From Thermoplasmatota archaeon (GTDB lineage Archaea > Thermoplasmatota > E2 > JACPAO01 > JAHFTW01), in contig JBFIHX010000007.1 in the NCBI GenBank assembly GCA_041601615.1, positions 87,805 to 151,804 of the forward strand: a DNA stretch of 64,000 nucleotides. Direction: 5' to 3'. Positions 7,341 through 20,921 of the stretch are shown here, one piece after another. Position 1 is the stretch's first letter. Each line of letters opens with the position of its first letter. Under the pieces are notes generated by a model. That model was not told where the DNA came from. It was given only the letters and a program-made list of their open reading frames with translations, and searched no databases. Position numbers and translations under genes: made by a program.

Positions 7341-8189
7341 CTCCGCCTCTCGAAGCGACGAAGCCACGCTGGCCAACGCACGAAGACCCGGCACCGTACG
7401 CGTTCCAAACCAAGTAAGCGCCTCACCGTCGATCACAAGCTTTCGCTCCTGCACCCCGGCCCGCCCGAGCCCCGCCGTATCGATTTGCTCCAATTTCTTG
7501 TCAAATGGATACGGCTCCGTAGGCAACAAAGTCCAAGCCGCACCCGACGCCGCGACCTCGGCCGCATCGACTTGGAAATACTTGGGTCCCTGATGGCGCC
7601 CAAATACATTGGCAAGCCCCACCGCCGCCAGCATCGCATGCGGATACGCCGAGCGGTCAAACGTCATCCAAGGATCATACCAAATCGGACAAAACACCGG
7701 CACCGCCAACTGATTGCGCGTCGGCCGCACCGCCTCCAGAGTCTCGCGAATCAACATGGCCGCCGCCAAGCCCGCATCCGGAACCCCACACCGAATCCCA
7801 AGCTCATCCAAAAACGTTGCAGCATCCTCCACCGAATCAATTTCTGAGTGCAAAACCTCCACGCCCGCCGCCCGCAGCGCCTCCACGAGCGCCAACGGAT
7901 TCTCATCCTTGTCCACCACCACAAGATCAGGTTCAAGCGCCAAAATTTTCTCCAACTTGGCATCCTTCGTGCCGCCCACAACAGGAATGGAATCGACCCA
8001 AGGAGCCGGCGCGATGCAAAACCGAGTCCGGCCCACGACGCGGTTGGCCAAACCCAAATCATGCAAGCTCTCCGTGTGGCTCGGAACCAGGGACACAATA
8101 CGCTGCGGGGGCTGCACAAGGGCGCGGAGGCGCACGGGATGGAAACGGTTGCGTCCGGCAAACGACCACACCCAACCCACCAATTTCAT
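7311..8189 (-). CDS. ABC-transporter substrate-binding protein (TroA/BtuF/FecB-like cluster A metal/siderophore/cobalamin-binding)
   Basis: 'RIVSLVPSHTESLHDLGL...VVG' and 'LEPDLVVV' are typical of the periplasmic-binding-protein type 2 fold. Confidence 0.6.
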   Translation of the reverse strand: MKLVGWVWSFAGRNRFHPVRLRALVQPPQRIVSLVPSHTESLHDLGLANRVVGRTRFCIAPAPWVDSIPVVGGTKDAKLEKILALEPDLVVVDKDENPLALVEALRAAGVEVLHSEIDSVEDAATFLDELGIRCGVPDAGLAAAMLIRETLEAVRPTRNQLAVPVFCPIWYDPWMTFDRSAYPHAMLAAVGLANVFGRHQGPKYFQVDAAEVAASGAAWTLLPTEPYPFDKKLEQIDTAGLGRAGVQERKLVIDGEALTWFGTRTVPGLRALASVASSLREAESRGSGSMDL

Positions 8190-8282
8190 TCATCGACCCT
8201 GACCACAACCGTATTCACCCGCCGCCAAGTGGATTCCTTCGTGGATGGGCCCGGCGCCGACGCGGCACCCTCAAAACCCAGC

Positions 8283-9557
8283 ATGGGCAAGCGCATCGTC
8301 GAGCTCGTGCTCGGCAAACCCAAAACGGAACGCAAACCGCGCCCGCACCCCTTTGCCCACGAATCAACAAGCGACGCCGAAAGCCACTACACGGCCAAAC
8401 AAGTGCTCGCATTCTGGGGCGGCATCGCCACCCTCATCGCCGTCAGCAGCCTGCTTCTGGCCGACCGCTTCAGCCCCCACTCAGCCGGCTGGTTCGGCGG
8501 CCACGGCGCAAGCGGCCCAAGCTTAGCCTGGGAATCCTGGACCCTCGTCCCCCTCTTTGCAGGACTCACACTCCTCGGCTTCGGCTTCGTCCACCAACCC
8601 TGGGCCAAACGCCTCACCCTCGTCGGCTGGGTGCTGTTTGGAACCTACTGGGGCCTCACCGCCACCGACCTCTTTGTCAAAGAAGACAGCGACTACGTCA
8701 ACTTCGTCTTCGCCGTCGTCGGCGTCTACTTCTTCACCTACCTCGCCTACCACCAATGGCTGGACCTCGCCCGCAAAAGCGACACCCACGCCCTGCACTT
8801 TCTCAACGTCACCGCATTCATCGCCGCAGGCACCTACTTTCTAATTGCCAAAATCACCTTCCTCCGCGTCTGGCTCATCCACATCGTCGGAAACCACACA
8901 AAATGGATGCTCGACCTCTTTGGCCAAGGCAGCAAACAAAACATCCAATTCATCGTAGACAAGACCGACAGCCAAGGCCCTGTGACCTTCTTCTATCCGC
9001 AATACTACTGCGACTGGCAATACCGAGGCGACGCCGTGGGCCGATACTGCCTCGAAAACGGCCGCCTCTCCGAAAGCACCGTCGTAGCCAACTCCGGCTT
9101 CCTCGGCAACCTATGGACCTGGACCCCCGAAGTCGGCATCGAATATGTCGTACCCGTCAGCATCATCCTCGCCTGCACCGCCATCCAAAGCATCATGCTC
9201 TTCGTCGGCCTCTTTGCCGGCACCAAAGCGAACTTCCAACGCAAACTCAAGGCGAGCCTCATCGTCGGCGCCATCATCTACGTCCTCAACCTCGTGCGCA
9301 ACACCGGCATCATCTGGTTCTACGGCCAAGGCCACGCCAGTTTCTGGATGATGCACAACGCCATCGGCAAAGGCGGCAGTCTGCTGGCCATGGTCGGCAT
9401 CGCCTTCGCCGTCTTCAAGTGGTTCCCGGAGTTTTTCCACAGCCTCGTCTCCGTGCTCGACCTGCCCGACCGCGACGGCCCCATCGAACGCGCCCTCAAA
9501 GTCGGCCGGCGCCGACCAGAAGCCGCAGCACCCGTCAAGTTTGCCGGCGAAGACTAG
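8283..9557 (+). CDS. artA: archaeosortase A-like polytopic membrane protein (exosortase/archaeosortase family candidate)
   Basis: Start refined to ATG 8283 (MGKRIVEL...). It has 8 or more TM helices and a TM Cys in 'SIILACTAIQS' (Cys298). An 'NLVR' Arg follows 41 residues later (Arg339); for comparison H. volcanii ArtA has Cys173/Arg214, recalled from memory. It lies immediately upstream of psd-pssA, the neighbourhood conserved for ArtA. One hydrophilic loop is unusually long. Confidence 0.5.
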   Translation: MGKRIVELVLGKPKTERKPRPHPFAHESTSDAESHYTAKQVLAFWGGIATLIAVSSLLLADRFSPHSAGWFGGHGASGPSLAWESWTLVPLFAGLTLLGFGFVHQPWAKRLTLVGWVLFGTYWGLTATDLFVKEDSDYVNFVFAVVGVYFFTYLAYHQWLDLARKSDTHALHFLNVTAFIAAGTYFLIAKITFLRVWLIHIVGNHTKWMLDLFGQGSKQNIQFIVDKTDSQGPVTFFYPQYYCDWQYRGDAVGRYCLENGRLSESTVVANSGFLGNLWTWTPEVGIEYVVPVSIILACTAIQSIMLFVGLFAGTKANFQRKLKASLIVGAIIYVLNLVRNTGIIWFYGQGHASFWMMHNAIGKGGSLLAMVGIAFAVFKWFPEFFHSLVSVLDLPDRDGPIERALKVGRRRPEAAAPVKFAGED

Positions 9558-10964: not shown

Positions 10965-11776
10965 TGGCCCGCAAGCCCCAAAAAAAACAGAAGACCTCCA
11001 TCCGCACCGCCGCCGGCACCGCCCAGCGGTCCTTTAGCGAACGACTCAAAGCACTCCGCGCCGACCCATTGCGCGTCCTGCCCGACTGCCCCAACGGCGA
11101 ACCCAAGGCCATCGCCAAAATCCACGCAGGCCTCGACAAAATCGTCACCGGCAAAGTCGGATTCCTCCTCAAGCGCGACAAAGGCATCGTCGGCGCCGTC
11201 CTCTCCAGCATCGAACTGGCCGACCAAGAAGCATTCCCGCGCCTCATCGACCACAAAGTCGGCGGCACACGACGCTTCTTCATCCAGCGCGGCCACGTGC
11301 CCCGCTCCTGCCTACTCGGTGTCCAGAACCACGACGACGCCCGCACACTCCTGATGGCCTACCGGCCGCTTGCCAAGTCCGACAAACTGCACTTCTTTGC
11401 CGACCCCGGCATCACCTGCACCGGCACCGACGCCCAACCCCCACAAGCCTGGATCGACGCCCTCGCAAACCGCGCCGGCTTCAAACTCGAAACCACGGCA
11501 GAAGGCTGGACCTGCGGCCACGAAGACAAAGGCCAGGTGCGACTCGGATTCGGCGACTTGCGCGGCATCCACATCTGCGGCGCCTGTGGCAAAAAAACCG
11601 GCAACCTGCACTCCCTGATTCGCACCTGCTACGCCGGGCCCAAAGAACGGCAACCCGTCGAAGTGTCCGTCGTCGTGGAAGGCGTGGAAGGCGCCGCCCA
11701 CCCGGACAAAATCGCAGCCTACCGAGGCGGCGTCATCGACGAAAAGGCGCTCGTGGACAGTGTCACGCTCACCTAG
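10964..11776 (+). CDS. hypothetical protein with C-terminal Cys cluster (possible Zn ribbon)
   Basis: The ATG overlaps the pssA stop (TGATG). There is no recognisable domain. C-terminal 'HICGACGKK...TCYAG'. It is co-directional with artA-psd-pssA. Confidence 0.5.
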   Translation: MARKPQKKQKTSIRTAAGTAQRSFSERLKALRADPLRVLPDCPNGEPKAIAKIHAGLDKIVTGKVGFLLKRDKGIVGAVLSSIELADQEAFPRLIDHKVGGTRRFFIQRGHVPRSCLLGVQNHDDARTLLMAYRPLAKSDKLHFFADPGITCTGTDAQPPQAWIDALANRAGFKLETTAEGWTCGHEDKGQVRLGFGDLRGIHICGACGKKTGNLHSLIRTCYAGPKERQPVEVSVVVEGVEGAAHPDKIAAYRGGVIDEKALVDSVTLT

Positions 11777-12402
11777 AACCCAAGCCCGCCAAGGAAAAAG
11801 CCGACCTGCCCCGCTGCCTGCCGCTGCGCACCGCGCCAGAAATGGTCCGTGGGCACCGACGCGAACCGAGCGTCCGGGATGGCTTCGGCAAGATCCATGC
11901 CGTGCTGTACCGGAACGTCCACGTCCCGAAGGCCATGCAAAACGAGCGTCGGGCACGGGACGCGGGGAGCAAGTGCAATCGCTTCCTCGCTCGCTGGCAA
12001 TTCCCGCATCTCCTTCAACACCGCGTTGGGCTCGAAGCCGTACTTCTTGCCAAACACCGCCCACTGAGGCCGGAATTGCTTGTGCGCCTCCTCAGCGCGG
12101 CGGGCCCAACTGGCGACGGGCGACAAGAGAATCAGCGCGTCCACGGCGACATTGCCGAGGGCGACCTGACGAAGCAGCAAATTCGCACCGAAGCTGTAGC
12201 CCAAACCGATGCGGGGGCCGGCTGGCAAGGATTCGGCCGTGGATTGGATGGCATCCTCGCAGGCAGAGAACAGGAAGGAACCCGGGCGAGATTCAAGGCC
12301 TGGGTACGGGACCAGGGCGCGGGAATGGTCTGGGAGAAGCGCCTCGGCAAGCACGTCCATGAACGGGGAGGAGAAAGAGGGACATACGAGGGCGGAGGGC
12401 AC
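11773..12402 (-). CDS. alpha/beta-hydrolase fold protein
   Basis: Nucleophile elbow 'GYSFGA' (GxSxG); downstream 'LVLHGLRDVDVP...D' gives the catalytic Asp, and His follows in 'PTDHF'. Confidence 0.6.
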   Translation of the reverse strand: MPSALVCPSFSSPFMDVLAEALLPDHSRALVPYPGLESRPGSFLFSACEDAIQSTAESLPAGPRIGLGYSFGANLLLRQVALGNVAVDALILLSPVASWARRAEEAHKQFRPQWAVFGKKYGFEPNAVLKEMRELPASEEAIALAPRVPCPTLVLHGLRDVDVPVQHGMDLAEAIPDARFASVPTDHFWRGAQRQAAGQVGFFLGGLGF

Positions 12403-12534
12403 GGATCAGGCCAGATTGGGGGCAGGGTTCAAGGTAGCGGAGGGGCGTCGCGGCAAAATGATGAGGCACCGAGCAAGAGGCGGGCATCCAGCTCGCGGCC
12501 GTTCTTGGTGGCTTGCCATGCTTCGTTGGCAAGC

Positions 12535-12933
12535 TTAGCGAAGTCGGACATGCGCCTTGCCTCCGTCCTTTGGCGGATTCACTCGATATCGATTCGCACC
12601 CAGTTTTTCGACGTAACCGGTCTCCATCCAGGAACGCCAACGGAGTCCAGCTAGGTCAGAAAGCTCAACATCGCGTTTTCTGCGAAGGGCTTGGATTTGG
12701 TTTTGCTCCAAATGGCGGCCAATCACGAGGGGGGCATCCGTGTCCGTGATGCAATAGACGCCACGCGAGACGCGCTCAATGACGCCGGCTTGCTTGAGGC
12801 GATTCAAGGTGCTGTCGACATTGCGAATGCCCCAGACTTCCCTTGCCTCCGCCGCAGTGAACGGAGTCGTTCCGAATGCCCGACGCAAGGCTTCCGATTT
12901 CAGGCAAGCATCCACATATGGAAGGTTGTACAT
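12535..12933 (-). CDS. AbiEi_4-type winged-helix protein (antitoxin-like transcriptional regulator N-terminal domain)
   Basis: 'FTAAEAREVWGI...STLNRLKQAGVIERVSRGVYCI' matches the AbiEi N-terminal consensus (F-T-...-G-I-...-S-x-L-S-R-L-V-K-x-G-...-R-V-A-R-G-V-Y). Confidence 0.55.
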   Translation of the reverse strand: MYNLPYVDACLKSEALRRAFGTTPFTAAEAREVWGIRNVDSTLNRLKQAGVIERVSRGVYCITDTDAPLVIGRHLEQNQIQALRRKRDVELSDLAGLRWRSWMETGYVEKLGANRYRVNPPKDGGKAHVRLR

Positions 12934-12950
12934 GAAGGTATCTTGGATTT

Positions 12951-12962
12951 GGGGGGGGGGGG
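12951..12962. repeat. G12 (C12 on the coding strand) homopolymeric tract 18-30 nt upstream of the AbiEi_4-like gene start
   Basis: 'gatttggggggggggggaatg' is seen directly; the minus-strand ATG is at 12933. Confidence 0.8.
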
Positions 12963-13107
12963 AATGCTCTGGCGGGGGTTCGGCTGCGAAGGCGGATTGC
13001 GGAGTTGGGCTGAGAGGAGGGTTGGTGTCTAAACGACTGAGGTAAGCCGCCTCGACCGGAGGGAGAGGCGGCTTGAGCGATTTGTTAGCACGAGCAGAAC
13101 TACAACC

Positions 13108-13545
13108 CTATGCTGGCCTGAAGTCTTCGTAGATCTGGTCACTGAGGTCCAATCCAAGTCGCTTGTGCATGGGGCCGTAGGCCGTGTATCGTTCTGGGCG
13201 AACGTGCCGCAACTCATGGCCAGCATCTGTGACTACCCCCAATTGCTCAATGTTGGCATCCTTGTGGAGGTAAAATCGAACGCGGTCGGCTCCGTGCTTC
13301 GTCATCCAGGCCGCAAGCGGTGCCAGGTCATCGCGGGGGCAGACGATGACTGCCATGAACCAAGAGTCTGGAACGTGGGCGGGTAGGGCGTCAAGGAATT
13401 CGTGTTTCATCCAGCGGTCAATGTGTTGGACCTCGTCGGTTGCCATCTCCAGGCAATTTGGTTCCTGGCTGCTTACGATGAGGGCCAATGTGGAATGGGA
13501 ATGGGCCGCAACGACGCGAGTCCAGTCCTCAAGGCGTCCTTTCAT
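13108..13545 (-). CDS. hypothetical protein (145 aa)
   Basis: The ORF overlaps the upstream wHTH gene by 4 nt and has no recognisable motif. Local GC is lower than the flanks. Confidence 0.4.
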   Translation of the reverse strand: MKGRLEDWTRVVAAHSHSTLALIVSSQEPNCLEMATDEVQHIDRWMKHEFLDALPAHVPDSWFMAVIVCPRDDLAPLAAWMTKHGADRVRFYLHKDANIEQLGVVTDAGHELRHVRPERYTAYGPMHKRLGLDLSDQIYEDFRPA

Positions 13546-13916
13546 GCGTGAACAAGGCCGCGTTGGGTGGATTCGTGCCGGTATGCATCAGGAAGTATTT
13601 GCTGGCTGACGAGCAGGACTCTTGCGCCGAGGGCAGAGAGTTCAATTCTCTGCGTTTTCAAGTCAGGCATCAAGCCCAAGCGGATCAAGCCCTTCTGGTC
13701 GAGGGCACGAATTGCTTTCGTGACCGTGGCGGGGGCAGCGTCGCCTTGAATTTTTTTTGCCAATTCTGGCCGACTAAGAGCGTGCCCCATGAGGGCCTCT
13801 AGGGCCTCAAGTTGCCGTCGTGCACCTCGGCCACGAATCTCCATGGCAAGCTGATACTCATGGTCCTGGTCAAACTCATCGGGCCACATAGTTACCCATG
13901 GGTAAGCATAGGACAT
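13542..13916 (-). CDS. MarR-like winged-helix DNA-binding protein
   Basis: 'LSRPELAKKIQGDAAPATVTKAIRALDQKGLIRL' shows the helix-turn-helix plus wing pattern. It is translationally coupled to the 145-aa ORF. Confidence 0.45.
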   Translation of the reverse strand: MSYAYPWVTMWPDEFDQDHEYQLAMEIRGRGARRQLEALEALMGHALSRPELAKKIQGDAAPATVTKAIRALDQKGLIRLGLMPDLKTQRIELSALGARVLLVSQQILPDAYRHESTQRGLVHA

Positions 13917-14038
13917 AAGGGTGTCGGCAGACCCTGCACTTCCGCGCGTGCTAACGGTCGAGGTCAGCCGCTCCGAACGAAGTGAGGAGTCGGCTGGAGC
14001 GATTTGTTATCTTGCGCGGCTCGGCCTAACTAGGGCTT

Positions 14039-15814
14039 CTAGAATCCGAAGCCAGCCCAATGCCCCCTTCTGTACTCGCCCAGACCTTCGATGGCGGCGT
14101 TGACTCGCTCGAGCTTGCCGCCGAAAAGGTTAGTTTCGAGCGGCCCCCAGTTGGTGCCCCGCGCTTCGATGTCACTTTCCATGATTTTTAGAGCGGAATC
14201 ACCATGATGGTTGCTCAGCCATGGTCCGGCCGCATAGTGTGGCCGACGTTTCTCTTGGATGGCGTGGTCGGCCCGATGAAGGTTAACAATCGCGTCGAAA
14301 TTATCGAATGCCTGGGCTGCATCGCCCTCGGACCCAAGCACGTCTTTTACACACTCCACCACAGCCCCTTTGAACCGCTCTCGGAGCCAGAAAAGGTTGC
14401 GCTTCGCATCTGGGATGCCTTCCTTGATTTTGCCACAAATCCGGTTTGGCTCGAACGCGAAGGGTGCCCAATCCCGGTCGCCCGGCAACCCCATGTCGTT
14501 CAATTGCAGCAAAGCCGTAACCGATTCCCATTCGTCGCGGGCAATCATCGAGGTTCCGGCCGCCCACCACGCCATGGCCGCCGGAAGCACCATCGCTTCC
14601 TCAAGTGCGCTGTTCCACGGGCTCACGGTTCGGTTGTATGAAGACGCGTTTCGGAATGGCCGCTCAAGGTGCGGGGTGCTATTGGGGACCCAGAACGCGG
14701 TCGTACCGCTGATCGCAGCGAAGATGCGCCCCTCGCCGAGAAGCGCGTGAAAGCGCGCCTCCAAGTCGACGTCCCCGCCCGAGTGGATGGGGAAAGCATC
14801 GGTGTGGAGACGTTCTTGGATATGTTTTGCTTCGCGCATCAATGAATCATGGAGGCGCATGAAAGGGGGCCCGGCTTCTATTTGCTGCTTAGTTGCTTCG
14901 ACTGCAAGCCCGATGGACAGGGGAGTGCCCTCGCCCAAGCGCGCCAGGCTGGCTACGGAATCAGATAAACCCCCAAAAAATTCGTCGGCCGGGCCCACCG
15001 GCGCGTATGGAATCTGCTGTCGAGTGGAAATCTCCTTGATGGCGTCGCTCGCTTCGCCTCGGCCTGCCCACAACGACTCGAACCGACGTGATTGCCGTGC
15101 CTCAATCAAGGACAATAACGCCGTGTCGTGTTCGGCACTCCATCCTGATATGAGTAAACCATGCTCTTCAAGAATGCGGGCGACGAAATTTGCAAGGTCG
15201 CCATGATACTCGGCCAACTCATCCTGGGTGTTAAGGAATCCAGGGTCTTTGTAGTCCCCGTTGACCTTTACTACAACCACGCCGGATTGGCTGACCGGCA
15301 CGGCGCCTGCTGCCTGCGATGGATTGCTAATTACAACGGGTTCAATGCCCTGCTCAACCAACGCGGCTTCCATTAGCCTGTCAAAATTCGTAGTCAAAAT
15401 TACCTTGAGGTAACCCCCCGCTGCCAATTCTGCAATGGCTCGATGGGCCGCCGTTGGCTCGGGAATCTTGCCGTCCGGTTCAAAATAGCCGGCCAGTAAA
15501 GCGACGCGCTGTTCCTTCGAATTGGCTAGATCTTGGATAATCTCCGAGTACTGGGCCGGCTTGCCAAACGTTTCCTGGAACCATTGGAGCGGGGTGGCGG
15601 GGTCTTGAGCTTGGGCTGCTGCGATACGCCGTGCAAGATCCTCGACAACCTCGTACCCAGTTGGAATCTTTGCGGCGCGGCTTGCACCTGACCCCAGGAG
15701 CACCGCGATGCTCCCTGGGCGGTCATGCATGGCCATTGCAATGCGTACGGCCGGGTTCATATGTTGCCATCCGCGCCCCCGTTTGAAGCGTTGCCTGCCT
15801 TTGGCAGATTGCAA
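14039..15814 (-). CDS. SIR2-like (SIR2_2) domain protein with uncharacterised ~350-aa C-terminal domain; candidate NAD-dependent defense effector
   Basis: N-terminal 'IAVLLGSGASRAAKIPTGYEVV' is the GxGxS Rossmann motif that opens SIR2_2 domains. 'LKVILTTNFDRLMEAAL' corresponds to the TTNYD motif of ThsA-type sirtuins. The start could alternatively be M19 (15760). Confidence 0.7.
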   Translation of the reverse strand: MQSAKGRQRFKRGRGWQHMNPAVRIAMAMHDRPGSIAVLLGSGASRAAKIPTGYEVVEDLARRIAAAQAQDPATPLQWFQETFGKPAQYSEIIQDLANSKEQRVALLAGYFEPDGKIPEPTAAHRAIAELAAGGYLKVILTTNFDRLMEAALVEQGIEPVVISNPSQAAGAVPVSQSGVVVVKVNGDYKDPGFLNTQDELAEYHGDLANFVARILEEHGLLISGWSAEHDTALLSLIEARQSRRFESLWAGRGEASDAIKEISTRQQIPYAPVGPADEFFGGLSDSVASLARLGEGTPLSIGLAVEATKQQIEAGPPFMRLHDSLMREAKHIQERLHTDAFPIHSGGDVDLEARFHALLGEGRIFAAISGTTAFWVPNSTPHLERPFRNASSYNRTVSPWNSALEEAMVLPAAMAWWAAGTSMIARDEWESVTALLQLNDMGLPGDRDWAPFAFEPNRICGKIKEGIPDAKRNLFWLRERFKGAVVECVKDVLGSEGDAAQAFDNFDAIVNLHRADHAIQEKRRPHYAAGPWLSNHHGDSALKIMESDIEARGTNWGPLETNLFGGKLERVNAAIEGLGEYRRGHWAGFGF

Positions 15815-16022
15815 TAATCAACTGGCGCCCAAGCCCGCAGCCCGCAAGATAACTAGGAATTATGCCGACGCGGCATAACCATGCCCCGCCCGCCCGTTCC
15901 GCCACACGCAATGTTGGCACCAGGGCATTCCCCCTGCCCCCGGCTTTGCAATAGCTCGTGCAATCATCGGGAATCTAGGCGAGTGTCGAATAGATGAGGA
16001 GGAAGAGGAGGGGCAGAGGTGT

Positions 16023-18898: not shown

Positions 18899-20392
18899 TC
18901 AGTGGCGGCGACGGGCAACCACGACGGCGGCGCCGAGTCCTGCGAGAATGCCGAGGGCTCCGGGGCCGGGGCTGTCCTTCTTTACGTCGGGGTCCGCGGT
19001 GGTGGGCGCGGCGGTGTCGTTGGCGGTGACTCCGCCGACGTTTACCTGCAATTCCCAGGTGCGGTCCTTTTGTTGGGAGCCTTCGAGCCAGCTGATGGTG
19101 CCGTTGACTTGGTAGATGCCGTGCGGGACGTCGGTGCCGGGGCGGACGGTGAATTCCTGTTGTTGGTCTTCGCCGGGGCCGATGGCTTGGTGTTCGCGCC
19201 AGGCGACGCTCCATGCGCCGGGGGCTGGGGCTTGGGTGCTTTGGACGATGGGGTCGTCGTAGCTTGTGAACGGGTGGCCGGTGGCGCCACCGAGGTTGCG
19301 CATGGCGAACTGGAACACGGCGGCTTCCCCGGGAGAGACTGTCTTGGTTTGTTCGTCTACGCTGATTTGGAGGCGCGGTACGTCGAGCGTAATGGCGCCG
19401 CCGCCGGCGCTGCCGATGTGGATTTCTTTCTGGGCTAGGTTGCCTGCAAGGTCGCGGGCTTCCACGCGCACCACGTCGCTGTCTAGGATGGGGCGACCTG
19501 AGAGGGCCCAGGCTTCGCCGAGGGGGCCGCAGGTCTGGGGAGGTTGTTGGCTGCATTCGTTCGCGACGGTGCTGCCGGTGCCGTAGGGGCCGTAGCCGGG
19601 CAGCAAGTCGTCGTCCCAGATGCGCCCTTCAAAGGGAGTCATGTTCTGAACGGCGCCGTCCTTTTGGTGCACGAGTTTGCCGTTGATGAACACCCGCAGT
19701 TCGGAGAGGGGTTCGGCAAATTCGAGGGTGAGGGTGGAGCCGGCGGGGGCGGCGTTCTTGCTGATGTCCAGTTCACCGTCGCCAGGAAGCATAATGGCCC
19801 AGGGCTCCGTCTTGTCCTGGGCTTGGTGTTCTGCGGTGGGGTACGGTTCGTCGTTGCAATAACTGGGCGCCGGTTCGGTGCAGTTGTCGACGACGGCGAG
19901 GGTCCAAGCGCGTGCGATTTCGTTGTCGTTGGCGTCGTAGGCGTGGACTGCGGCCATGTAGTCGCCATCGGGGACGAGGGTCGTTTGGAGGTTGATGAAG
20001 AAGCCGTCCGAGGGGTCAATGTCGGCGCGGTAGTTGATGATGTAGGGGCCGCTGGGAATCCAGGGCTCCATGGCGCAGACTTCTGTTTCGCTGGCCATCT
20101 GGGACACGGGGCTGAAGCTGAAGCCGAAGGTGGCAATTTGGTCGGCGCCGTCGCCGATGGCTTGGAACTGCGCAAAGAGCTGTCCTTGCGCGTGCACTTT
20201 GCCGTCGCCCTTCTGTTTGAGTCCGGGGTTCAGGAAATCTAGAAGGATGTCGCCGCAGCAGTCGAAGTCGCTGTTGGCTTGACATTCGGTTCCCTGCTGG
20301 TCGAGTTCTGCGCCGGCAAACGCAGCGGGCACGGAGACTAGCAGGAGCAGGAAGCAAAGGCCGGCCTGGACCGGACGCATACACCACATCAT
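18899..20392 (-). CDS. secreted surface protein with PGF-CTERM-like tail
   Basis: Start refined to M92: 'MMWCMRPVQAGLCFLLLLVSVPAAFAG'. C-terminus '...SPGPGALGILAGLGAAVVVARRRH*'. There is no catalytic motif. Confidence 0.6.
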   Translation of the reverse strand: MMWCMRPVQAGLCFLLLLVSVPAAFAGAELDQQGTECQANSDFDCCGDILLDFLNPGLKQKGDGKVHAQGQLFAQFQAIGDGADQIATFGFSFSPVSQMASETEVCAMEPWIPSGPYIINYRADIDPSDGFFINLQTTLVPDGDYMAAVHAYDANDNEIARAWTLAVVDNCTEPAPSYCNDEPYPTAEHQAQDKTEPWAIMLPGDGELDISKNAAPAGSTLTLEFAEPLSELRVFINGKLVHQKDGAVQNMTPFEGRIWDDDLLPGYGPYGTGSTVANECSQQPPQTCGPLGEAWALSGRPILDSDVVRVEARDLAGNLAQKEIHIGSAGGGAITLDVPRLQISVDEQTKTVSPGEAAVFQFAMRNLGGATGHPFTSYDDPIVQSTQAPAPGAWSVAWREHQAIGPGEDQQQEFTVRPGTDVPHGIYQVNGTISWLEGSQQKDRTWELQVNVGGVTANDTAAPTTADPDVKKDSPGPGALGILAGLGAAVVVARRRH

Positions 20393-20501
20393 GGCATCGA
20401 GGCCGCTTTGCGGGCAAAAGGGTTGTTGTCGGTTTTGGAAGTTGGAGGCTTTTGAGAAATCCCCAGTCAACGTCAAACGAGGGGGTTTCATTTTGGGGGA
20501 T

Positions 20502-20921
20502 ATGCTCCGTTCTTTGGGCGTTCTTTGCATGCTGGCGGTCGTCACTCTGGCCGTACCGACCTCCGCAGCTTCGCTGGAAAAAGACACCGATGGCCTAGGC
20601 GTGTTCCCGGTGGATTGTTTGGCCGGGTACGCAGGTTGGCAAATCCGCGATACGGGATACTTCATCGGCGACCCGATGAACCGCTTTGGCTACTACCAAC
20701 AAGTCCTGGTGTTCAACAACTTCATCCTGGTCTTCTGTGCCTTGTATGAAGTCAACTGTGCCCAGGTGTACGCCTCCGATCTCCTGATGGACTTTGGCTC
20801 CAACCTCTCCAACGGTGCCTACTTTGCGGCGGTTGCGTCGACCATTCCAAACTCCTTGGACTACGCAAGTTGCGCAACGGGCGTGCCGATGCCGACACCC
20901 ACGGTGAACATCGCACAGTAA
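20502..20921 (+). CDS. small secreted hypothetical protein
   Basis: Internal ATG 20502 gives 'MLRSLGVLCMLAVVTLAVPTSAAS' as a signal peptide. The protein is about 139 aa and Cys-containing. Confidence 0.35.
   Translation: MLRSLGVLCMLAVVTLAVPTSAASLEKDTDGLGVFPVDCLAGYAGWQIRDTGYFIGDPMNRFGYYQQVLVFNNFILVFCALYEVNCAQVYASDLLMDFGSNLSNGAYFAAVASTIPNSLDYASCATGVPMPTPTVNIAQ

Follow-up and report, generated by a model that had tools for sequence, protein, structure and literature searches.

The genomic islet described here lies in a 64-kb stretch of DNA (the window) within a 157-kb contig of a Thermoplasmatota archaeon (JBFIHX010000007.1), where four minus-strand open reading frames (ORFs) are found between korB and a gene for an alpha/beta hydrolase. 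The islet is a two-cassette cluster of attC sites lacking an integron integrase (CALIN) in a Thermoplasmatota chromosome, and its largest gene, which encodes a SIR2 protein, is a divergent archaeal member of PDC-S65, a known single-gene family of phage-defense candidates. Both the SIR2 gene and the CALIN are therefore of kinds that are already known. The initial annotation of this DNA, made from its letters alone, had located the four ORFs correctly and had proposed that they form one four-gene antiphage system, possibly an undescribed variant. The islet is instead best read, with good though not complete confidence, as a CALIN within a variable, defense-prone interval between korB and pssA, in which a SIR2 cassette, an unrelated cassette with genes for a small winged helix-turn-helix (wHTH) protein and a 145-aa protein, and separate cargo have accumulated. 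In this reading, the genes are adjacent because cassettes were stacked by site-specific recombination, and not because they form an operon.

The evidence for cassettes starts from an element of about 64 nt (63-64 nt), the same in both places, that follows the stop codon of the SIR2 gene and the stop codon of the 145-aa protein gene. attC1 (13949..14012, minus strand; R'' AGATAAC, R' GTTAGCA, crossover G(13955)|TT) closes the SIR2 cassette, and attC2 (13028..13090, minus strand; R'' TGCTAAC, R' GTTTAGA, crossover G(13034)|TT) closes the second cassette, referred to as cassette B. A covariance model, R1, finds these two sites and no others in the window, on the same strand as the genes, with scores of 70.9 bits for attC1 and 59.5 bits for attC2. 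Canonical attC ends, spacing, and extrahelical positions are present in both elements, as the structure of an attC site demands, and attC2 features a perfect 9-bp central stem and a DNA fold with a z-score of -3.9.

Related elements are found in metagenomes. Metagenome contigs were scanned with a 17-nt box taken from the 5' part of the element, a search pattern that does not include the 3' half. Complete RYYYAAC...GTTRRRY attC architecture, spanning 56-124 nt, was present in 33 of 120 box matches; these sites consist, on the 5' side, of an R'' (e.g., GCCTAAC, GTCTAAC, or GCCCAAC), a conserved spacer, L'', and a variable central hairpin, followed on the 3' side by L' (GGCT[G/T]AGCTC) and R' (e.g., GTTAGGC or GTTGGGC). 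The 3' half is common to the metagenomic matches and both window elements, even though it was absent from the search pattern, and attC1 has the same 3' box, spacing, and pairs as 24 metagenomic attCs. In an alignment of 26 sites, pairing extends to 92% of cells, versus 23-48% in slid registers, and the covariation exceeds that of all 500 shuffles; at the L''/L' pair of columns 17/62, for example, 13 sites have C:G and 12 have A:T. R1 detects same-strand arrays of 2-7 sites in the metagenome contigs L171, L126, L170, L156, L092, and L093, with L170 encoding an integron integrase (TIGR02249, 451 bits vs. a cutoff of 265) and L156 encoding another that is divergent from its attC array. Sites resembling attC1 (98% identical, contig L127) and attC2 (95% identical, contig L162) also occur with unrelated flanks. 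A blastn search of plasmids with attC2 gave no match, the query being too short and too diverged; by eye, the element may resemble the attC of the class 1 aadA cassette.

Integron recombination crosses over at the G|TT of R', so a linearised cassette begins with the TT-containing part of its own R'. At the start of cassette A, GTTATCTTGCG (15853-15843) matches the reverse complement of CGCAAGATAAC (14016-14006), the 5' end of attC1, at 11/11 positions. Likewise, GTTAGCACG (13955-13947), which forms both the start of cassette B and the 3' end of attC1, matches the reverse complement of CGTGCTAAC (13092-13084), the 5' end of attC2, at 9/9. Such complementary starts are the signature expected after circularisation at G|TT, and they define the boundaries of cassette A (13955..15852, minus strand, 1898 bp), which comprises the SIR2 gene and attC1, and of cassette B (13034..13954, minus strand, 921 bp), which comprises the wHTH gene, the 145-aa gene, and attC2. 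At 1.9 kb, cassette A is large for an integron cassette. Assemblies also break at the attCs: contig L001 ends at 13980, L202 starts at 14007, and L203, from a second metagenome-assembled genome (MAG), starts at 13959. That these are attC-bounded cassettes can be held with high confidence.

In archaea, a CALIN has been defined as two or more attCs within 4 kb in the absence of IntI, and Thermoplasmatota MAGs are listed among the carriers (Ghaly et al., 2022, PMC9668308). The present islet fits this definition, with two attCs 922 nt apart, both on the minus strand like the genes and both bacterial-type in appearance, as are those of the archaeal CALINs in that study. It differs in that its cassettes adjoin korAB and are flanked by archaeal marker genes in a contig of 157 kb, and in that one of them carries a defense-candidate gene, whereas the word “defense” is absent from the main text of that work. 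A complete integron would have an adjacent intI and attI; within the 64-kb window neither accompanies the attCs, and korB lies directly upstream of the cassettes. The initial annotation had likewise described the islet as having no integrase, which agrees with a tblastn search of the window with an integron integrase (best E 0.42) and is explained by a cassette cluster that lacks a nearby integron integrase. A further parallel is provided by anti-phage cassettes of bacterial chromosomal integrons (bioRxiv 10.1101/2024.07.02.601686), which are likewise compact, promoter-poor cassettes with an autonomous defense gene; they are found in bacteria (Vibrio), and SIR2 is not mentioned in the text of that work.

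Cassette B behaves as a unit of its own. Its first gene is the small wHTH ORF (13542-13916, minus strand, 124 aa), which most likely starts at ATG 13889 to give a protein of 115 aa (MWPDEF...), as its homologs are all called at 115 aa and the upstream ATG is not kept in an 86%-identical contig (L204). The second gene, for the 145-aa protein (13108-13545, minus strand), shares an ATGA overlap with the wHTH gene, so that the translational coupling proposed in the initial annotation holds. The description of the wHTH protein as MarR-like holds only in part: it is a small wHTH protein, but Pfam MarR scores 15.3 bits, below its cutoff of 24.6, and with only sub-threshold HTH matches (HVO_A0261_N, MarR, LexA), it is better called a generic small wHTH. 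The 145-aa protein has no match in Pfam, NCBIfam, PADLOC, PHROGs, or the PDB. Its family contains 32 proteins, mostly on contigs of 0.9-2.3 kb, and at each of the 10 other loci examined, the wHTH gene (79-93% identity) immediately precedes the gene for the 145-aa protein. Contig L204 is exactly one homolog of cassette B. In four other contigs (L217-L220), an attC with the same R'' as attC2 follows the stop codon of the pair by 16-18 nt, and what comes next is either a VapBC cassette, which has an attC of its own, or a gene for a HerA-like ATPase of 500 aa. Since the genes that follow cassette B homologs differ, cassette B is an independent mobile unit. With a small DNA binder coupled to another small protein, it is similar in form to toxin-antitoxin pairs, which are common in cassette arrays, and the pair might, by this likeness, be one of them. 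The HerA-like protein itself (L217, 840-2339) was identified by eye as a P-loop ATPase of 500 aa with the motifs AKTGAGKSY and VVEEAHNF. In contigs L206 and L207, the pair is found near archaeal pilus genes, amid series of small modules of two genes each, including HicA with a partner, DUF7718 with an HVO_A0114 HTH (twice, in opposite orientations), a ribbon-helix-helix protein with a 133-aa protein, and a GNAT protein; a single R1-type attC was detected there, and these runs may be arrays with divergent attCs or islands of another kind.

The SIR2 protein almost certainly belongs to PDC-S65. The PADLOC profile of this family (PDLC05061) matches it end to end (E 1.7e-134, 448 bits, residues 18-582 vs. 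profile positions 11-586 of 592), and the protein is therefore not undescribed. In its mechanical form, the ORF (14039-15814, minus strand) encodes 591 aa from TTG 15814. The gene most likely starts at ATG 15760 rather than at this TTG, because the exact 573-aa product is already on record (P0001) and the PADLOC profile aligns only from residue 18 of the 591-aa form; the likely gene is thus 14039..15760 (minus strand, 573 aa plus stop). The SIR2_2-type N-terminus seen in the initial annotation, with GSGAS...PTGYEVV and LKVILTTNFDRLMEAAL, is present and is recognised by Pfam SIR2_2 (38.3 bits vs. a cutoff of 24.5, residues 138-239). An AlphaFold2 model (pLDDT 84.7) features a SIR2 Rossmann domain (residues 1 to ~255, 14996..15760, minus strand) with GSGAS, TTNFD (N125, D127), and KVNGDY including Asn167, followed by an all-alpha C-terminal domain (residues 256-573, 14042..14995, minus strand) that is family-specific and presumably has a sensory or regulatory function. 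The C-terminal ~320 aa are covered by no Pfam family, and the domain alone has no solved relative in fold and sequence searches of the PDB. Profile searches of this region, which had been proposed as a check, returned no known metabolic domain. Profile and structure searches together with the neighboring ORFs bore out the statements that the protein has no SLOG, TIR, APAZ, or HerA signature and no prokaryotic Argonaute (pAgo) partner.

PDC-S65 is a large family, with at least 1419 homologous proteins of about 580 aa at E<=1e-5, which share 30-36% identity with the window protein. Genomic neighborhoods were compared at the best 80 homolog loci, one genome per species, taking 5 genes on each side for a total of 663 neighbors. 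Relatives of the wHTH, 145-aa, AbiEi-like, and hydrolase proteins, sought by tblastn, are found at none of these loci, and clustering of the neighbors revealed no conserved partner, which is the organisation expected of a single-gene system. The sole recurrent neighbors are Type I restriction-modification (R-M) subunits, namely HsdM-like proteins at 11 of 80 loci, HsdS at 8, and HsdR at 6. A scan of 150 immediate neighbors found 119 different Pfam families, including R-M, Type ISP, AbiEii-like AAA_21, Schlafen, and DUF4238; HerA is not recurrent among the clustered neighbors. PDC candidates originate by “guilt-by-embedding” (PMC12988326), and these neighborhoods fit such an origin. The distribution of the family is patchy over bacterial and archaeal phyla. 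Bacterial loci come from Desulfobacterota, Chloroflexota, Acidobacteriota, Planctomycetota, Sphingomonas, Stenotrophomonas, Bacteroides, and Streptomyces, and archaeal loci from Methanocrinis, Methanosarcina, Methanothrix, Heimdallarchaeota, and a Halorarius plasmid. By tblastn, PDC-S65 is also found on 45 plasmids, eight of them from Halobacterium, and no copy was detected in phage genomes. The neighborhood analysis called for in the initial annotation thus ties the homologs to mobile and defense contexts, through the R-M genes at 11 of 80 loci, the 45 plasmids, and a defense-island-like context on a Halobacterium plasmid. The two outcomes that it had named as speaking against a defense role, residence in housekeeping deacetylase operons and a metabolic C-terminal domain, were not encountered. 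On the Halobacterium salinarum plasmid pKBTZ01_286 (L216, 38650-54371), the homolog (WP_136361728.1) is annotated as a “SIR2 family protein” and is flanked by an integrase/HTH pair on one side and by genes for DUF4365, a Dcm methyltransferase, and phospholipase D on the other.

The window protein shares with other PDC-S65 members its length, its architecture of a SIR2 domain followed by an all-alpha C-terminal domain, and its occurrence as a stand-alone gene, and it differs in its archaeal host and its location on an integron cassette; the family itself is a prediction. The nearest solved structures (SPARSA Sir2-APAZ, DSR2, ThsA, and KomC) align over the SIR2 domain only, and the ThsA, pAgo-associated SIR2, and Dsr1 models match only the N-terminal third of the protein. 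SPARSA Sir2-APAZ has the closest solved SIR2 domain, in sequence (E 8.5e-18, 8jkz/8in8) and in fold (E 1.7e-10, 8y80_E), and is similar in total length (~585 aa), but the match is limited to approximately residues 113-263, or 317 alignment columns; the Aga_SIR2 profiles cover residues 31-237 only, with no APAZ region and no pAgo ORF nearby. DSR2 is the best functional counterpart, as an analogy only: it senses a viral protein and triggers loss of NAD+, and like the window protein it joins a SIR2 effector at the N-terminus to an alpha-helical C-terminal region in one polypeptide, with SIR2 domains that superpose (Foldseek E ~1e-7 to 1e-8). However, DSR2 is ~1000 aa long and has His171 where the window protein has Asn, and the isolated C-terminal domain of the window protein has no detectable fold or sequence similarity to DSR2. 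Membership in the DSR1/DSR2 group (~1000-1260 aa) is not supported by NCBIfam Dsr1 (16.8 bits vs. a cutoff of 1400). The Thoeris ThsA profiles match the SIR2 part only (E 1e-5 to 3e-6), SLOG is absent from the all-alpha C-terminal domain, and no TIR (ThsB) gene is found nearby. Finally, a SIR2-HerA system is not indicated, as the islet contains no HerA.

Several observations weigh against the interpretation of the islet as a CALIN that carries an antiviral NADase. No integrase and no attI were found in the window, and there are only two attCs. Both of these sites were part of the R1 training alignment, so their R1 scores are partly achieved by construction. R1-type attCs near other PDC-S65 genes are absent (no matches in 1.1 Mb, 0/80 loci), and cassette carriage is thus not a trait of the family. 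The window protein is just 32-36% identical to its nearest other PDC-S65 members, and a literature search found neither an experimental test of PDC-S65 nor a paper that names it. Finally, the position occupied by the catalytic His in ThsA, DSR2, and KomC (KIHGDF in the Sir2 of SPARSA) is Asn167 in the window protein (KVNGDY; codon at 15260-15262), and the same substitution is found in the KomC variant H146N, which has been solved in complex with NAD fragments (PDB 9xvc).

This last point deserves closer consideration. The window protein has the SIR2_2 Rossmann domain with its GxG and the Asn/Asp of TTN(F/Y)D, and it lacks the catalytic His in K-x-H-G-D that characterises the defense-type SIR2 NADases. 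Over 197 full-length PDC-S65 members (alignment A1), the position is split between His (123/197) and Asn (71/197, ~36%), and both states seem to be tolerated. Because for 21 of the 71 N-type proteins the nearest relative is H-type, the switch between His and Asn has recurred. G23/S24/G25, N125, D127 (of TTNFD), and K165/G168/D169/Y170, on the other hand, are invariant in H and N forms alike. With Asn at the catalytic position, plain NADase activity is not to be assumed.

The alternatives to the cassette interpretation are readily stated. A single new four-gene defense operon, made up of the SIR2, wHTH, 145-aa, and AbiEi-like genes, has in its favor that the genes are close neighbors on one strand, with similarly low GC content at third codon positions (GC3), and that two of them are translationally coupled. 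This is outweighed by the absence of any partner from all 80 SIR2 homolog loci, by the two attCs that lie between the units, by the presence of cassette B in 10 other loci without SIR2 and without the AbiEi-like gene but with other genes, and by the PADLOC model of the SIR2 family as a single-gene candidate, leaving the operon very improbable. It might also be supposed that the 64-nt elements are terminators or generic repeats, or that the islet arose when bacterial reads were mis-assembled into an archaeal contig, considering that each element follows a gene and forms a GC-rich hairpin, that only two copies occur in the window, and that contigs break there. The canonical ends, spacing, extrahelical positions, and covariation of the elements and their relatives in arrays beside integron integrases speak for attCs instead; no T-tract is listed after the hairpins, and complementarity at cassette boundaries is not expected of terminators or of repetitive extragenic palindromic (REP)-like repeats. 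As for mis-assembly, both junctions with archaeal sequence are covered by separate contigs (L001 from korA through korB to SIR2, L202 from cassette B through psd), and L203, from the second MAG, is 99.5% identical. Neither artifact is given more than a very slim chance.

With regard to the SIR2 protein, two further alternatives concern its activity. It may take part in defense or another conflict without being an NAD+ hydrolase, acting as an ADP-ribosyltransferase or an NAD+-binding switch or persisting as inactive, decaying cargo. The replacement of His by N167, the many switches between close relatives that accompany the 71:123 division of the family, and the KomC H146N structure with NAD fragments would all suit this possibility. 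However, the remainder of the pocket (GSG, TTNFD, K165, G168, D169, Y170) is invariant in both forms, which argues for purifying selection on the active site, and the ORF is intact and its structure model confident. In sirtuins, moreover, cleavage of nicotinamide relies less on the His than do the later steps of deacylation. A non-hydrolase is accordingly rated as unlikely, though to be taken seriously. A housekeeping or regulatory protein deacylase is far less plausible still and can almost be discounted: weak local matches to CobB-type deacetylases exist (NCBIfam, E 4.5e-4, 19.5 bits), but they fall far below the cutoff of 320, the family matches are to SIR2_2 and PDC-S65, and the patchy spread of the family, its plasmid and R-M-embedded contexts, and the mobile cassette in a variable site seen here do not suggest a housekeeping function.

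Returning to the cassette interpretation, an antiviral role of the SIR2 protein is somewhat favored by analogy with related effectors. NAD+ hydrolysis as its chemistry is proposed more tentatively and falls a little short of an even chance, given the Asn in place of the canonical catalytic His. If DSR2, ThsA, and SPARSA are taken as models, the SIR2 protein would act alone. Its family-specific all-alpha C-terminal domain may keep the N-terminal SIR2 domain inactive as long as no viral cue is sensed; once one is, the released SIR2 domain would consume NAD+ or transfer from it and the infection would be aborted. Expression of the SIR2 gene may depend on read-through from korAB, which lies upstream on the same strand, or on a promoter inside the cassette. 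Scans of the DNA for terminators and sigma-70 promoters performed no better than on shuffled sequences, and such models are not applicable to an archaeon.

The host is archaeal. Archaeal markers in the window include archaeosortase A, archaetidylserine synthase and decarboxylase, RadA, tRNA Cm56 methyltransferase (Trm56), and CTP-dependent riboflavin kinase, and the nearest named relatives of KorB are Thermoplasmatota MAGs. The flanking korA and korB genes were identified by TIGR03710 (669 bits) and NF008820 (308 bits), and the downstream flank encodes an alpha/beta-fold hydrolase with weak matches. As the initial annotation had observed, the islet is AT-shifted: its genes have a GC content of 0.56-0.58 and a GC3 of 0.57-0.66, compared with a GC3 of 0.76-0.87 in korA, korB, psd, pssA, and the hydrolase gene. 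The interval from korB to the block containing a 270-aa protein gene, pssA, and psd (11777..16022) differs in content in every relative examined. Nucleotide homology to contigs L211 and L212 ends at the korB stop codon (16023) and, for L212, resumes near 11673. At this site, L213 carries genes for a 469-aa protein and a histidine kinase, and L212 carries a gene for a 184-aa protein unrelated to the hydrolase. The differing gene content of each relative indicates that the site behaves as a variable, defense-prone hotspot. In L211 (2804-5618), whose KorB is 91% identical, the site holds a CARF-like/HFX_2341_N protein (PADLOC CARF3, E 2.4e-20) along with DUF2604 and genes that have weak matches to BilB, BilC (Prok-JAB), and BilD; this cargo is possibly a ubiquitin-like Bil defense system in an archaeon.

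The fourth ORF of the islet (12535-12933, minus strand, 132 aa, GC3 0.59) stands alone. It was said to encode an AbiEi_4-type wHTH protein, and Pfam AbiEi_4 does match (28.3 bits vs. a cutoff of 25), over residues 25-63 only; the PADLOC AbiEi profile matches the N-terminal part only (E 1.3e-7). A full AbiE system would be expected to comprise an AbiEi of ~200-290 aa and an adjacent AbiEii nucleotidyltransferase, whereas the score of NCBIfam TAA_AbiEi is 19.3 bits (cutoff 150) and no neighboring ORF encodes AbiEii. R1 finds no third attC after this gene at E<=10. Because only the wHTH part is present, without AbiEii and without an attC thereafter, the gene is taken as separate cargo; together with the hydrolase gene, it is treated as further, independent cargo of the variable interval, apart from the cassettes. 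The homopolymer reported upstream of it is indeed found, as a C12 tract (12951-12962, minus strand) that lies 17 nt before the AbiEi-like ATG and within the right arm of an inverted repeat. In the corresponding stretch of L203 (975-985), the tract is T+C8. The difference in length reflects either a variable homopolymer, and possibly an expression switch, or assembly noise.

The inverted repeat has 22-nt arms (15920-15941 and 12951-12972) that match at 19 of 22 positions, and it brackets the two cassettes nearly symmetrically, with 67 and 61 nt between its arms and the ends of the cassettes. It may be a structure into which the cassettes were inserted, a suggestive rather than an established relationship, or it may reflect G-rich versus C-rich composition. 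The reconstructed empty site folds at -40.9 kcal/mol, with a z-score of only -2.47.

Two broader ideas may be entertained, although as a pair they are considered doubtful. One is that two bacterial-type cassettes were inserted at a non-attI site, the center of the inverted repeat downstream of korB, in a lineage-specific defense hotspot with no resident integrase, such that archaeal chromosomes may acquire antiviral genes across domains by way of integron cassettes. The other is that the recurrent natural His-to-Asn form of the PDC-S65 pocket may mark chemistry beyond plain NAD+ hydrolysis.

The islet serves to correct a tempting over-reading of adjacent genes as an operon. It also provides a clean archaeal example of chromosomally anchored integron cassettes, flanked on either side by archaeal marker genes, and a cassette with a defense candidate brings together two topics of recent interest, integrons in archaea and integrons that store defense genes. 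The combination is noteworthy, in that an archaeal chromosomal cassette with a defense candidate resides in a hotspot where the nearest relative has Bil/CARF-like genes. PDC-S65 is worth testing as a large single-gene candidate family with a sensor-like domain and a natural His/Asn split, and the homologs on Halobacterium salinarum plasmids offer an experimental entry point in a tractable archaeon.

A few minor features of the window may be added. Right after the stop codon of the AbiEi-like gene, positions 12510-12533 form a perfect 8-bp hairpin, GCTTGCCA-N8-TGGCAAGC, which is not an attC according to R1. Farther away, a 588-aa secreted protein (18899-20665, minus strand) ends in a PGF-CTERM-like tail (PGPGALGILAGLGAAVVVARRRH), and the archaeosortase A gene (7848-9557, plus strand) adjoins the archaetidylserine synthase and decarboxylase genes. 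The PGF-CTERM-like protein, archaeosortase A, and the archaetidylserine genes are a complete archaeal protein-anchoring set.

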